A DNA stretch of 64,000 bases from Actinomycetota bacterium. Its GTDB lineage: Bacteria; Actinomycetota; AC-67. Positions 20,160-45,922 of this stretch are shown here, in pieces (position 1 is the stretch's first letter; the number at the start of each line of letters is the position of its first letter). The notes beneath the pieces were generated by a model. The model made no database searches. It saw only the letters and a list, made by a program, of their open reading frames with translations, and had not been told where the DNA came from. The position numbers and the translations under genes were made by a program. Location of the stretch: assembly GCA_036398095.1 (NCBI GenBank), contig DASWHR010000141.1, positions 1,138 through 65,137 of the forward strand. Reading direction: 5' to 3'.

Positions 20160-21838
20160 CCGGCAACGCCGAGATCGCGCTGGCCTGCGCATCGCTGCTG
20201 GCCGACGAACTTGCCCGCGGCGGCGTCGAAGACGTATGCGTTTCGCCCGGCGCGCGATCCACGCCGCTGGCGCTGGCGGTCGCGCGCCATCCGCGATTGC
20301 GCGTCCACGTGATCTTGGACGAACGGTCGGCGGCGTTCTTCGGCTTGGGGATCGCGAAGGCGACGCGCCGCGCCGTCGCGCTGGTGTGCACGTCGGGGAC
20401 GGCGGCGGTGAACTGGCATCCGGCGATCGTCGAGGCGCGCTATTCGCAGACGCCGCTGATCGCGCTTTCGGCCGACCGGCCACCCGAACTGCACGACACC
20501 GGCGCGAACCAGACGATCGATCAGCGCGGACTGTTCGCATCGGCGCCGCTGTGGTTCTTCGAGATGCCGGTCCCCGCGATCGAAGACGACAGCGAGCGCG
20601 TCTGGCGATCGGTCGCGGCGCGCGCCGTCGCGGTCGCGGCGGGACCGCCGGCCGGGCCGGTGCATCTGAATCTTCCATTCCGCGAGCCGCTGGCGCCCTC
20701 GGCCGAGATCCCGGATCTCGGCTCGGGCCGCGAAGGCGGTGCGCCGTGGGAGCGTCACTCCCCCGCCGCGCTCGCGGCCGATGCGCACCCGATCGAAGAC
20801 CTGGCCCGGTTGATCGAAGCGGCCCGGGACGGACTGATCGTGTGCGGCGGACTCGAAGACGACGCGCCATCGATCCTGGACCTTGCCGAGCGGATCGCGT
20901 GGCCGCTCGTCGCGGAGCCGCAATCGGGCCTTCGCCGGGACGGCGCGCTGTCGGCGCCGCAATTGATCCTTGACCGGATCGACCCGTCGGTCGTGCTGTC
21001 TGTCGGCGCGCCGCCGACGTCGCGCGCGACGCGCGCGTTGCTCGGCCGCGCCGGCCGCGTCGTGACGGTGGATCCCTCGCGATGGAACGACCCGGATCGC
21101 CGCTCGTCGTGGACGCTTCGCGCCGACGCGGCGCTGCTCGCCGACGCGCTGATCGCCACGATCAAGCCGCGCGAGGATCGCGCGTGGATCGAGCGATGGC
21201 GCGCGGCGGATGCGGCCGCGCGTGATGCGGCCGACACGCTGATGGACTCGTGGGACGAGCCGTTCGAAGGGCGCGTGGCGCGCGACGTCGCGCGGGCGGT
21301 GCCGGCCGGCGGGCTGCTGGCAATCGGATCGTCGTTGCCGGTGCGCGACTTGGATACGTTCATGGCCCCGCGCGAGGACGTGTGGGTGATCGGCAATCGC
21401 GGCGCGAGCGGCATCGACGGGTTCGTGTCAACGGTCCTGGGGATCGCGCAGACGGGCGAGCCGACGGTCGGGCTGATGGGCGACCTGACCTTCCTGCACG
21501 ACGCCGGATCGCTCGCCTGGCTCGCCTCGCGCGCGAAGCCGGCGGTGCTGGTGGTCGAAGACAACGGCGGAGGCGCGATCTTCGACCTGCTGCCGCAAGG
21601 ATCGATCCGCGAAGCCGACGATCTGTTCGTCACGCCGCACGAGCTTTCCATCGAAGCGATCGCGCGCGCCGCCGGGTGCCGCACCCGCCGCGTCACGCGC
21701 GCCGCCGACGTCGCCGAGGCGGTCGCCGAGGCGGTGGCGGCCGGCGAGACGACCGTCGTGCACGTCGAGTGCGCCCGCACGGCCGGCCCGCCCCGCCGCG
21801 CGGAGATCGCCGCAGCCGTCGCACACGTGACGAAGTAG
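20156..21838 (+). CDS. menD: 2-succinyl-5-enolpyruvyl-6-hydroxy-3-cyclohexene-1-carboxylate synthase (thiamine-PP enzyme).
   Basis: Three-domain TPP enzyme (GDLTFLHD TPP motif). GTGA overlap with the menA stop. The track ORF start at 19988 is an upstream extension. Confidence 0.85.
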   Translation: MTGNAEIALACASLLADELARGGVEDVCVSPGARSTPLALAVARHPRLRVHVILDERSAAFFGLGIAKATRRAVALVCTSGTAAVNWHPAIVEARYSQTPLIALSADRPPELHDTGANQTIDQRGLFASAPLWFFEMPVPAIEDDSERVWRSVAARAVAVAAGPPAGPVHLNLPFREPLAPSAEIPDLGSGREGGAPWERHSPAALAADAHPIEDLARLIEAARDGLIVCGGLEDDAPSILDLAERIAWPLVAEPQSGLRRDGALSAPQLILDRIDPSVVLSVGAPPTSRATRALLGRAGRVVTVDPSRWNDPDRRSSWTLRADAALLADALIATIKPREDRAWIERWRAADAAARDAADTLMDSWDEPFEGRVARDVARAVPAGGLLAIGSSLPVRDLDTFMAPREDVWVIGNRGASGIDGFVSTVLGIAQTGEPTVGLMGDLTFLHDAGSLAWLASRAKPAVLVVEDNGGGAIFDLLPQGSIREADDLFVTPHELSIEAIARAAGCRTRRVTRAADVAEAVAEAVAAGETTVVHVECARTAGPPRRAEIAAAVAHVTK

Positions 21839-21851
21839 CCGAGCCGGACAG

Positions 21852-22220
21852 TTGCGCAACAAGTTTGTTGCGCGCTATGCTCTCCCTATGCCCGATCCCA
21901 TTCAGCGAAAGATCAAGGCCTTGGTGGATTCGCTCGGCGGTTCCGTGGTCGCAGAACTGCTCGGGGTCGATCGTTCGCAACCCTCGCGCTGGAAGAGTGG
22001 CAAGAGCCAGCCGTCGGCCCAGATGCGCGGGCGGATCCTCGACCTCGAATACGTGCTCTCTCGGCTGGAGGAGATCTTCGAACCGGCGGTCGCGGTGGAC
22101 TGGCTCTACGGGATCAACGCGTTTCTCGGGCATCAGCGACCGATTGACGTGATGCGCATCCGGGGGGTCACGGAAGTCATCGGAGCCGTCGACGCCGAAG
22201 CAGGTTTGGCGTTTGCCTGA
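21852..22220 (+). CDS. Xre-family HTH antitoxin of a RES-Xre (MbcA/ParS-like) module.
   Basis: N-terminal HTH (LVDSLGGSVVAELLGVDRSQPSRW) and a C-terminal DUF2384-like toxin-binding domain (GRILDLEYVLSRLEEIF...AVDWLY). Confidence 0.65.
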   Translation: MRNKFVARYALPMPDPIQRKIKALVDSLGGSVVAELLGVDRSQPSRWKSGKSQPSAQMRGRILDLEYVLSRLEEIFEPAVAVDWLYGINAFLGHQRPIDVMRIRGVTEVIGAVDAEAGLAFA

Positions 22221-22770
22221 TCTCTACCGCGTCTTTCCCTATGATCCGGACGCGGCCCCACACGAGCCGGGCGGGGCGCTCCATGCTCCCCGAGATCGTC
22301 AGGGCAACGGACGCGCGGACAACCCAGGCCGCTACAGCGTCGTGTACTTCGCTGCGACACCTGCCGCAGCGGCCGCAGAACGCTTTCAATCCTTTGCCGG
22401 ACGCCGCGTGACGCCTGCCCACCTGCGTGGCGGCCGATCGGGACTGCCCTTGGCACTAGCGAACGTCTCAGTTCGACGCGACGACGCTCGCAATCTGGAC
22501 GACCCGGCTGCGCTCCAAGAACACGCCTTGATTCCCTCGGACGTCGCGACGCGCGATCGCCATGTCACGCAGGCCTGGGCATTGCGCTTGTGGGAGGCGG
22601 GCTTCCCCGGTGTGCGCTACTGGTCGGCCATCGAGGCCAAGTGGCCGGTGATCGCGCGGTGGTCGCTCGATGACGTGCGCGTGGAGCAGGTCGAGCCGCT
22701 CACCGTCTTCCACGCCGCGCTGCGGGAAGCGGCGGCCCTGCTCGGCATCGAGATCGGACGCAGTCGCTAG
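22213..22770 (+). CDS. RES-domain toxin (MbcT/ParT-like NAD+-targeting toxin).
   Basis: RES-domain layout with a conserved Arg context (GRYSVVYFAATP) and later Glu/Ser residues. 8-nt overlap with the Xre gene. Confidence 0.6.
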   Translation: MPDLYRVFPYDPDAAPHEPGGALHAPRDRQGNGRADNPGRYSVVYFAATPAAAAAERFQSFAGRRVTPAHLRGGRSGLPLALANVSVRRDDARNLDDPAALQEHALIPSDVATRDRHVTQAWALRLWEAGFPGVRYWSAIEAKWPVIARWSLDDVRVEQVEPLTVFHAALREAAALLGIEIGRSR

Positions 22771-22880
22771 GAGGGTGCTGAAAAAGACCGACCCGTGCCT
22801 GGTCGGACTTCAATCAGCCCAGGTCGGAGGGTTAACGTCGGGCGGGCATGCATGCAGACACTCACTTTTTCAGCACCCTC

Positions 22881-22884
<4 letters not shown>
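22767..22884. mobile_element. 118-bp MITE-like element, copy 1, with 20-bp terminal inverted repeats (CTAGGAGGGTGCTGAAAAAG ... CTTTTTCAGCACCCTCCTAG).
   Basis: Near-identical copy at 45805..45922. The terminal CTAG supplies the TAG stop of the RES toxin (+) and of menF (-). Internal palindromes (gcatgcatgc, gttaac). Confidence 0.65.
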
Positions 22885-24091
<1,207 letters not shown>

Positions 24092-24095
<4 letters not shown>

Positions 24096-44458: not shown

Positions 44459-45808
44459 ATGAGGATCCTCGCGTTCACCACAGATGCCTCGCTCGAGGTG
44501 GCTCTTGCCTCGCTCGACGAGCGGTTCGAAATCGTCGCCGCCCGCGATCCGGAAGGGGCGCTCGCCGAGGCGTGCCGGTCGGATCTTGCGCTCGTCGCGC
44601 TGGGCACGACCGATCGCGGCCGCAGCGCGGTCGAAGCGCTGCACCGGCTGCGCGTCGGCATCCCGTGCCTGATCGTCGGCGACGTCGTTCCCGGCGACGA
44701 CGGAGCCGTCCCTGTGCTCGTGCGCCCGTTCTCGCTCGGCGACCTGACCGAGGCGATGGTGCGTGCCGTGCAGCGCCCGTCAGTCCCGGAGTCTCAGCCG
44801 GAGCCCGAGCCGGAGGCCGCCGAACCCTTCATTGACCTGCCTCCCCCGGTCGCCACAGCGGCGCAGCCGGAGCCGGAACCACAGCCGGAACCGGAGCCGG
44901 AACCGCAGCCGGACGAGGTACCGGACGAGGTACCGGCGGCGTTTCCCGATCACGAGACGGTCGAAGAATTGCTTCGGCAATTGGAGGAGGCCGCGGCCGC
45001 CGTGCCGCCCGCCGCCGCAACACCGTCCAGGGATCCGGTGTCGTGGGCGCTGGACGCGCTGCACGAGATCGGCGACGCCCCCGCGCCCGAACCGCGAGCG
45101 CGGCCGCTTCCGGCCGGCGCCGCGCCCGAGCAAGAAGCCACCGCCGCGCGCATCGTGCGTCATGCCGCCGCCGCTCCCCGCAGCGGCGACTGGCTCGCCG
45201 ACCGCGGCGGCGAACGAAGCGGGCTCCATCGCCTGCGTCGCCGCCGGCGTGCGATCCCGGTGGCCGGCTCGCCGCGCGCATCGATCATGCGCCGCGTCCG
45301 CTCGGCGCTGGAAGGCGCGCGCGAACTGGAGGCGCTGCTCGAAGAGATCCCGTCCCTGTCGGACCCGCATGCGATGGCGCGCGCGCTGGTGCGCGAAGCC
45401 GTCGAGCTGCTCGGCTCCGAGACGGCGGCGCTGTACTCCGCCGACCCCGACGGGTATCGCATCGCCGCGGCGCACGGCTTGTCCCCCGTCGAGCAGTCGA
45501 TTGTGGTTCCGCGCGAGCAGCCGTTGTTCGGCGACGTCGCCGGCCGCTTGGAAGCGGTTCTGGTCGCGCCGGTCGATCTGGTTCGGGGGCTCGTCGCAGG
45601 CATCGGCGGCACAACCACCGAGGCACTGATGCTCGCGCCGCTGGACGTGGACGGGCGATGCGCCGGCATTCTGCTCGCCGGCCGTTCGCGCTTCGGAGAC
45701 GAAGACTTGGAACGTCTGTGGCATCTCGCCGAGGAAGCAGCGCCGGGCTTCGCAGCCGCGCGACTGATCGAGCGGATCCGCCGGCGCGACCTTCCCGTCG
45801 CGCTCTAG
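44459..45808 (+). CDS. Regulatory protein made of a receiver-like N-domain, a Pro/Glu-rich (PEPEPQ) repeat linker and a C-terminal GAF domain.
   Basis: The N-terminus resembles a degenerate REC domain. Tandem PEPEPQ coding repeats at about 44790-44935. The C-terminal about 170 aa is GAF-like. Confidence 0.6.
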   Translation: MRILAFTTDASLEVALASLDERFEIVAARDPEGALAEACRSDLALVALGTTDRGRSAVEALHRLRVGIPCLIVGDVVPGDDGAVPVLVRPFSLGDLTEAMVRAVQRPSVPESQPEPEPEAAEPFIDLPPPVATAAQPEPEPQPEPEPEPQPDEVPDEVPAAFPDHETVEELLRQLEEAAAAVPPAAATPSRDPVSWALDALHEIGDAPAPEPRARPLPAGAAPEQEATAARIVRHAAAAPRSGDWLADRGGERSGLHRLRRRRRAIPVAGSPRASIMRRVRSALEGARELEALLEEIPSLSDPHAMARALVREAVELLGSETAALYSADPDGYRIAAAHGLSPVEQSIVVPREQPLFGDVAGRLEAVLVAPVDLVRGLVAGIGGTTTEALMLAPLDVDGRCAGILLAGRSRFGDEDLERLWHLAEEAAPGFAAARLIERIRRRDLPVAL

Positions 45809-45922
45809 GAGGGTGCTGAAAAAGACCGACCTGTGCTTGGTCGGACTTCAATCAGCCCATGCCGGAGAGTTAACATCGGGCGGGCTTGCATGCAGACACT
45901 CACTTTTTCAGCACCCTCCTAG
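45805..45922. mobile_element. 118-bp MITE-like element, copy 2, with the same 20-bp terminal inverted repeats as copy 1.
   Basis: About 93% identical to 22767..22884. Its left CTAG supplies the TAG stop of the REC-GAF gene. Confidence 0.65.

Follow-up and report, generated by a model that had tools for sequence, protein, structure and literature searches.

We analyzed a 64,000-nt stretch of DNA (the window; positions 1,138 to 65,137 of contig DASWHR010000141.1, GenBank assembly GCA_036398095.1) from an Actinomycetota bacterium, in which a 118-bp palindromic element lies exactly between the stop codons of two convergent genes. An earlier reading of the letters, made without database searches (the sequence-only reading), had described this element as resembling a miniature inverted-repeat transposable element (MITE). 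We conclude that it is very probably a non-autonomous MITE of the insertion sequence (IS) family IS1182, most likely moved by an IS1182 transposase into the TA of CTAG sites. This gives a simple mechanical account of how a palindromic element comes to lie exactly between two convergent stops.

Anatomy, copies, and empty sites

The element occurs twice in the window, which has a G+C content of about 70%. Copy A (22767..22884, plus strand, 118 bp) is delimited by sharp homology boundaries against copy B and by a perfect terminal inverted repeat (TIR). It consists of a C, a TA (22768-22769), a 112-bp core that runs from GGAGGG to CCCTCC (22770-22881), a second TA (22882-22883), and a G; the core ends are GGAGGGTGCTGAAAAAG...CTTTTTCAGCACCCTCC. 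The two TIR arms, CTAGGAGGGTGCTGAAAAAG (22767..22786, plus strand) and CTTTTTCAGCACCCTCCTAG (22865..22884, plus strand), are 20 nt each, 100% complementary, and spaced 78 nt apart. The left arm holds the TAG stop of a gene for a RES-domain toxin (22768-22770) as well as the hexamer AGGAGG, and the stop codon of a minus-strand gene for isochorismate synthase (menF-like) lies in the right arm, as the CTA at 22881-22883. There are also internal palindromes (GTTAAC at 22831-22836 and GCATGCATGC at 22846-22855). Copy A has no open reading frame (ORF) of note, and it is short (MITEs are under about 300 bp) and non-coding, as expected for a MITE. The perfect 20-bp TIRs, the internal palindromes, and the role of the terminal CTAGs in supplying the RES (plus strand) and menF (minus strand) stops had all been reported by the sequence-only reading, and we found each of them as described.

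Copy B (45805..45922, plus strand) is also 118 bp and has the same orientation as copy A; its right end lies 25 nt 5' of the ATG of the next gene. The two copies differ at 7 of 118 positions, so the figure of 93% that was first given for a second copy 23 kb away becomes 94.1%. In the pairwise comparison, homology breaks off precisely at the outer CTAGs. The TIR 20-mer occurs four times in the window, which are the two arms of each of the two copies, and it had no matches in 100 shuffles.

To find other members of this subfamily, we searched metagenome contigs of the Joint Genome Institute (JGI) with an exact 20-mer from the interior of the element. Divergent copies are missed by this search, and copy numbers are therefore lower bounds. 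Four stretches were returned: the copy A site again (L118) and three new sites (L117, L119, and L120) with flanks that do not occur in the window. The subfamily thus has at least five insertion sites (A, B, L117, L119, and L120) in unrelated contexts, and the five copies are 91.5-97.5% identical to each other. When the five copies are aligned, substitutions occur in 15 columns, every one of which falls among the 60 interior columns; the 60 terminal columns have none (p = 0.001, Fisher test) and differ only by a CT indel in L117. Such a combination of invariant ends and variable interiors is expected of copies that derive from transposition-competent masters. The pattern of substitutions suggests that active masters, themselves diverging, gave rise to the copies, as opposed to decay of the copies where they lie, or else that the ends are corrected or constrained.

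All five copies are flanked by TA...TA. The copy in L117 (6198-6316) is flanked more extensively, by TCTA...TCTA (CTCTAG on each side), which reflects either a 4-bp duplication or a subsequent change of 2 nt and leaves the stagger of the transposase's cut uncertain.

Relatives of the host genome lack the element at the corresponding positions. For copy B, orthologs of the GAF-domain gene are found on two related contigs (L121 and L122, 66-69% amino acid identity) with the same neighbors as in the window (T2SSF, T2SSF, GAF, and a small protein). The GAF gene ends with ...GCGCTG-TAG and a 20-nt spacer in L121 and with ...GCGCTC-TAG and a 36-nt spacer in L122; in the window the spacer is 139 nt. 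Excising 114 nt (the core and one TA) in silico from copy B yields ...gcgctCTAG followed by a 25-nt spacer, which contains CCGGGTACGCT, a sequence that is common to L122. The site has one TAG before insertion and two when filled, which implies that at least the TA is duplicated and that it is not merely a part of the element. A model with no duplication, in which the TA belongs to the element, is ruled out because the orthologs already hold a TAG at this site.

Near copy A, we compared menF from three relatives (L124-L126, 70-77% identity), and in each of them the menF stop lies within a CTAG. In L124 and L125, a single CTAG provides the stop of menF and also of the convergent menD (...CCCGCTAGCGCG...). 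We did not find an exact empty site for copy A in the relatives, where the Xre-RES cassette that precedes copy A in the window is absent. Excision of copy A would recreate, between the RES gene and menF, the shared-CTAG arrangement of L124 and L125.

The sequence-only reading had proposed a mobile, MITE-like family. We looked for the opposite outcome (two copies only, with no conservation of the TIRs elsewhere) and instead found additional copies and, as described below, conserved TIRs in other genomes. Judging by its sequence, the 118-bp element is a real MITE that belongs to a mobile family.

The wider family and its transposase

We scanned a genome collection of 596 Gb with TAGGAGGGTGCTGAAAA and obtained at least 114 stretches; the figures given here for the wider family are among the matches listed. 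Because a 17-mer should match about 70 times by chance in 596 Gb, the number of matches is not evidence for a family, and the evidence comes instead from inverted pairing. Of 119 listed matches (including the window and the subfamily loci), 85 have an inverted partner within 420 nt, with at most 4 mismatches in 17 nt, as compared to about 0.5 expected by chance. The lengths of the paired elements, from TA to TA, cluster at 104-106 and 113-117 nt, with a tail to about 300 nt. Subfamilies with TAGGAGGGTGCTGAAAA ends have different interiors, and comparing the whole 118-mer to the 114 listed genome loci with BLASTN gave matches to the TIRs only, which indicates that the genome of the window is not among the matches listed.

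We sorted the 80 external paired elements by hand, using the titles of the records. Most numerous were those from metagenome-assembled genomes (MAGs) of Acidimicrobiia (39; many of these are sponge-associated, including Ca. Spongiisocius), followed by unclassified sponge bins (13), Chloroflexota (7), Acidobacteriota (6), Mycobacteriales or Pseudonocardia (5), and others (10, including NC10, Gemmatimonadota, Acetobacteraceae, a "delta proteobacterium", and Nitrospinae). The TAGGAGGGTGCTGAAAA ends are thus present in at least six bacterial phyla. Sponge-associated Acidimicrobiia and sponge bins account for 52 of the 80, and among these loci (L002-L110: sponge Acidimicrobiia, Ca. Spongiisocius, and sponge bins) there are several MITE subfamilies with TAGGAGGGTGCTGAAAA ends, for example of 104-106 and 113-117 nt.

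The flanks of the 85 listed paired elements also indicate how these elements insert. The TA is preceded by C in 64 cases and followed by G in 54; 62 elements are flanked by TA...TA and 32 by identical 4-mers. These flanks fit best with a duplication of 2 bp (TA) in a preferred C-TA-G context. A strict 4-bp duplication (CTAG) for the whole family is ruled out, as identical 4-mers are found at just 32 of 85 elements versus TA...TA at 62 of 85. At L079 (7175-7400), a pair of diverged copies from one MITE subfamily lies head to tail, the two abutting at a single TA (...CCCTCC-TA-GGAGGG...). By their sequence, the CTAG end of one of these copies was the target for insertion of the other.

The same ends are found on elements that encode a transposase. 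One MAG from the Chloroflexia contains a 1.93-kb unit at three different places (L087, L101, and L108), and each time it lies in C-TA...TA-G. This unit starts with TAGGAGGGTGCTGAAAAAC and ends with ...CTTTTTCAGCGCCCTTCTA, and positions 2-18 of the left TIR of copy A are identical to its left end. The reading frames of the three copies are broken at different places, which could be due to genuine decay or to homopolymer errors in long reads; intact homologs are found elsewhere (P0138 and P0170). A transposase stitched from L087 and L108 matches the NCBIfam model for IS1182 (NF033551) with 312 bits, above the cut-off of 270, and also matches DUF772, DDE_Tnp_1, and DDE_Tnp_1_6. There are 1585 intact homologs of 538-541 amino acids (E < 1e-30), and the closest full-length homolog is 93% identical to the stitched protein.

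Elements that encode other homologs have similar ends. Four copies of one homolog (L135-L138) are in 1926-bp elements with TAGATGAACGCTGAAAAAG / ...TTTTTCAGAGCACTTCTA ends, and the element of another homolog (L140) is about 1.92 kb with the end TAGGAGACCACTGAAAAAG. All five of these elements lie in C-TA...TA-G and their ends have the form TAG...CTGAAAAAG. At another IS1182 locus (L139), the ends were not recognizable. In addition, annotated IS1182 elements on three actinomycete plasmids have TIRs that end in CTAG: CTAGGAGACTGCTGAATTA in ISMgi3 (Mycolicibacterium gilvum), CTAGGACGCTGCTGATTTAG in an element from Mycobacterium riyadhense, and CTAGAAGACTCATGAAG in an element from Streptomyces. Every autonomous element that we found with this end or with close variants encodes a transposase of the IS1182 family.

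A search with tblastn, using four IS1182 transposases as queries, did not identify a transposase in the 64-kb window or in 12 related contigs (L115-L126). The IS1182 partner in this genome is therefore inferred from the shared ends. As candidates for the cognate transposase, the sequence-only reading had named IS630/Tc1-like or IS200/IS605 enzymes; our data point instead to IS1182, whose DDE transposases are related to those of IS5. An origin from IS200/IS605, by analogy to palindrome-associated transposable elements (PATEs), is ruled out by the perfect TIRs and the TA...TA flanks.

Insertion at stop codons and rival explanations

Checking the five sites of the subfamily gene by gene, with Pfam, we found that the target site at all five is the TAG stop codon of a gene. 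Of the ten ends, seven coincide with the stop of a long ORF; six of these ORFs match Pfam, and the seventh has no match but contains an HExxH motif. (Here, left and right refer to the orientation of the element.) At copy A, the RES toxin gene stops at the left end and the isochorismate synthase gene at the right end. At copy B, the left end is the stop of the GAF-domain gene, and the right end is the one that lies 25 nt before the next ATG. At L117, the left end is the stop of Lgt and the right end is the stop of the HExxH protein (without a Pfam match). At L119 (3418-3535), the right end is the stop of a gene for the N-terminal part of cytochrome b and the left end is 9 nt before the ATG of the gene for the C-terminal part; this copy lies inside an apparent operon of the two cytochrome b genes. 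At L120 (2321-2438), the right end is the stop of an amino-acid kinase, and the left end adjoins the GTG start of an Exo_endo_phos gene. The kinase stop and this GTG formerly overlapped as TAGTG, and the insertion shifts the old ribosome-binding region 114 nt away.

For the wider family, we counted an end as a gene end if its TAG terminated, in frame, a coding-like ORF of 80 codons or more. This test, which is based on GC phase, is strict and misses true cases such as copy B. It was passed at 32 of 163 ends, as compared to 12 and 2 in two shifted control frames, and 27 of 78 elements had at least one passing end.

The tetramer CTAG is itself scarce: the window contains 19, versus 180 expected from its zero-order composition or 50 from a Markov model, and 4 of the 19 are the junctions of copies A and B. 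Several of the others are the stops of long ORFs (for example, 923 on the minus strand, 10282 on the plus strand, 25622 on the minus strand, and 44454 on the plus strand), and such stops are potential future targets.

We propose the following mechanism. The transposase would come, in trans, from a full-length IS1182 element at another place in the genome, and it would cut at the ends of the MITE, whose 112-bp core would carry nothing but the two transposase-binding ends. Integration of the core would then take place at the TA of a (C)TA(G) site, with duplication of that TA. With G as its first base and C as its last, the core would restore CTAG at both junctions (C-TA-G to C-TA-G...C-TA-G). 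A TAG stop on either strand that contains the target TA would be rebuilt, and the end of the interrupted gene would be unchanged. The landing sites at gene ends would include single CTAGs that serve as the overlapping stops of two convergent genes, so that the TA duplication and the G...C ends together account for the position of copy A between two convergent stops. The sequence-only reading had suggested insertion at, or capture of, a stop codon; insertion is consistent with our data, and capture is unneeded, as duplication of the TA within an existing CTAG rebuilds both stops. Because CTAG is rare at 70% G+C and many of the harmless CTAGs are TAG stops, surviving insertions gather at gene ends, which would be safe landing sites where CTAG is tenfold under-represented.

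The sequence-only reading had also attributed strong hairpin potential, a bidirectional-terminator-like structure, and a Shine-Dalgarno-like AGGAGG in each TIR to the element. The whole element does fold very stably (-59.7 kcal/mol on the plus strand and -58.1 on the minus strand; z = -6.1 and -6.4). The 78-nt interiors of copies A and B, on both strands, fold no better than shuffled sequences (z = 0.13, 0.20, -1.07, and -0.79), so the hairpin potential is that of the TIR stem alone. On the minus strand there is a terminator-like hairpin (22778..22806) with a 6-bp stem, CCGACC/GGTCGG, that has 5 G-C pairs and is followed by TCTTTTTCAG; a consensus scan placed the stem at 22806-22788, with TCTTTTT after it. 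The scan found no counterpart on the plus strand, so of the proposed two-strand terminator just the minus-strand half stands. Rfam had no match in the window at the gathering score, and around the element the matches were at chance level (E >= 0.29, among hits with E up to 10). The hexamer is indeed present in each TIR, but there is no start codon at a usable distance for ribosome binding (AGGAGG abuts a GTG with zero spacing). Because TAGGAG recurs in several IS1182 ends, we read AGGAGG as a transposase-binding sequence: it would be part of the signature of IS1182-type TIRs and not evidence of a ribosome-binding function.

These features raise the question of whether the element could instead be a cis element that was selected by the host, such as a terminator, an insulator, or a stabilizing RNA hairpin after stop codons, with its repetition reflecting its function. 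The very stable hairpin of the whole unit (z of about -6), the minus-strand hairpin followed by a run of T, the location of all copies directly after stop codons, and the 60 invariant terminal columns with variable interiors in the five-copy alignment (p = 0.001, as above) would all fit with this explanation. However, invariant ends are equally expected from active masters, the interior is not structured above chance and has no match in Rfam, and the element is missing from orthologous sites in relatives. The same ends also flank unrelated interiors and 1.9-kb elements that bear a transposase, and the TA...TA flanks and the abutting copies at L079 are marks of transposition. Furthermore, the terminator-like strand is the sense strand at L119 and L120, where it lies between genes that are apparently co-transcribed, which argues against efficient termination; at copy B it is the antisense strand. 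Overall, we consider a host-selected cis element to be very unlikely. A related idea, which combines both views, is that the TIR family was spread by IS1182 transposases but is kept at TAG stops for its action on transcripts, as a regulatory module that is addressed to stop codons. If so, the post-stop hairpin or the pairing of AGGAGG with CCUCCU would act on transcripts, and possible roles would be to insulate convergent genes, to stabilize 3' ends, or to uncouple translation in operons. We view this as improbable. We found no evidence for a function beyond transposition, as the element is absent at orthologous sites, its interior is unstructured, and its insertions show no bias in orientation. 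The long hairpin may affect mRNA, and any such effect would be a by-product of insertion.

Another explanation is that the MITE derives from, and is moved by, an IS630/Tc1-mariner transposase. Elements of the IS630 family target CTAG and duplicate the TA, and TA is the most consistent duplication here, with CTAG as its preferred context, but this feature is not exclusive to IS630. There is also a loose resemblance between the Tc1 end CAGTGCTGGCCAAAAAG and GGAGGGTGCTGAAAAAG, which we count in favor of this explanation. On the other hand, every autonomous element with this end or near variants encodes an IS1182 transposase, and the annotated IS1182 elements of Actinomycetota share the pattern of CTAG-ended TIRs. 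No IS630-type gene was seen beside the TIR matches at the 114 listed loci, for which long ORFs were listed and no dedicated search was made. An IS630/Tc1-mariner origin thus seems quite unlikely. As for a local segmental duplication or a chance palindrome without any family, which might be suggested by there being just two copies in the window, it is scarcely credible: there are three more sites with unrelated flanks, the boundaries are exact at the TIR ends, shuffled sequences gave no matches, and there are 85 paired elements among the matches listed.

Several observations count against our assignment of the element to IS1182. The genome's own autonomous partner was not seen in the window or in L115-L126 and is inferred, and the IS1182 elements whose end is identical belong to another phylum (Chloroflexota). 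The transposase that was first tested was stitched together from the frameshifted L087 and L108; intact homologs with 93% identity later matched this protein over its full length. A TA target inside CTAG is a classic signature of IS630, for which no dedicated search was made. The empty sites come only from orthologs with 66-78% protein identity and not from a near-identical strain. Finally, duplications of 2 bp and of 4 bp give the same empty site when both flanks are CTAG, and the flanks of L117 are TCTA...TCTA. Given the shared TIRs and flanks, we nevertheless consider a MITE that is mobilized in trans by IS1182, probably with a 2-bp duplication of TA rather than a 4-bp duplication of CTAG, to be by far the best explanation.

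Neighboring genes and related elements

The gene whose stop is the left CTAG of copy A encodes a RES-domain toxin (22213..22770, plus strand; Pfam RES, 50.4 bits), and on public contigs it is called as a gene of 185 amino acids. It is preceded by an ORF for an antitoxin of the Xre/MbcA/ParS type (21852..22220, plus strand; Pfam Xre_MbcA_ParS_C, 23.1 bits, just below the cut-off of 24.5). This ORF is called from a TTG at 21852, and at its start there is a 9-bp inverted repeat, GCGCAACAA-GT-TTGTTGCGC (21854-21873), which looks like a candidate operator for the Xre-type antitoxin. The Xre-RES cassette (21839-22770) sits between menD and menF and is flanked by two TAGs, at 21836-21838 (the stop of menD) and at 22768-22770 (the stop of the RES gene). 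It is absent from the relatives L123-L125, where menF is convergent with menD and their stops overlap.

On the other side of copy A, the isochorismate synthase (22881..24095, minus strand; 404 amino acids; Pfam Chorismate_bind, 256 bits) has its stop in the right CTAG. Its product is 100% identical to P0017, a 404-amino-acid protein from an Actinomycetota MAG at NCBI that is named isochorismate synthase. The rest of the men context consists of a thiamine pyrophosphate (TPP) enzyme (menD-like, plus strand) that ends at 21838 and a UbiE-type methyltransferase upstream of menF. At copy B, the GAF-domain gene (44459..45808, plus strand; 449 amino acids) ends with the TAG at 45806-45808, within the left CTAG of that copy.

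In the open-access literature, we found no description of this TIR family, nor of a bias of IS1182 MITEs towards stop codons. Our results flag an unannotated repeat family that fragments assemblies and confounds gene calling in uncultured Actinomycetota, Acidimicrobiia, and Chloroflexota. They also tie this family to IS1182, and its copies could be used as markers of insertion polymorphism.

The closest known relatives of the element are the IS1182 elements themselves (ISMgi3 and the 1.92-kb elements from Chloroflexota MAGs), with which it shares the TIR pattern (C)TAG(G/A)AG..(G)CTGA(A). Over TAGGAGGGTGCTGAAAAA, the end of the MITE is identical to the left end of the IS1182 element from the Chloroflexia, and both elements lie in C-TA...TA-G. 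In contrast to the MITE, whose interior is unrelated, IS1182 elements are 1.7-1.9 kb and encode a DDE transposase of 530-540 amino acids (DUF772 and DDE_Tnp_1_6). The ends of IS5 from E. coli, GGAAGGTGCGAATAAG and GGAAGGTGCGAACAAG, agree with that of the MITE at about 12 of 16 positions. IS5, which targets YTAR-type sites, belongs to another branch of the family, is 1.2 kb, and duplicates 4 bp, and its junctions do not have a CTAG that is built by G...C ends. MITEs of the IS630/Tc1-mariner type resemble our element in their duplication of TA and their preference for CTAG, but the transposases associated with this TIR are all IS1182.

The element that comes nearest in the literature is MITEPsy1 from P. 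syringae pv. phaseolicola, which is 100 nt, is non-coding, has an 18-nt TIR (GGAAGGTCTGAAAAAGCC), and inserts at CTAG or YTAA (PMC3189936). It was trapped while transposing in vivo, and it was reported to derive from ISPsy2, of the IS5 family (PMC3189936). Its TIR, GGAAGGTCTGAAAAAGCC, is very similar to GGAGGGTGCTGAAAAAG, and insertion at CTAG is common to both. In contrast, MITEPsy1 was reported to duplicate 4 nt, is associated with ISPsy2 (IS5 proper), and is from the Gammaproteobacteria, while the family in the window favors a 2-nt duplication of TA and IS1182; the interior of MITEPsy1 has no sequence relation to our element. MITEs that derive from IS1182 have been described in the archaeon Methanosarcina acetivorans, as partners of ISMac2; they are 160-169 bp, with inverted repeats of 25-26 nt and direct repeats of 4 or 0 nt (PMC3852290). 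These archaeal MITEs are like ours in that they are non-autonomous and are linked to their IS1182 partner by shared ends. For ISPse1, another member of the IS1182 family, the duplication is given as 4 bp (PMC3281130). By comparison to these systems, the element in the window is clear-cut but ordinary, one more representative of a known type and not a new kind of system.

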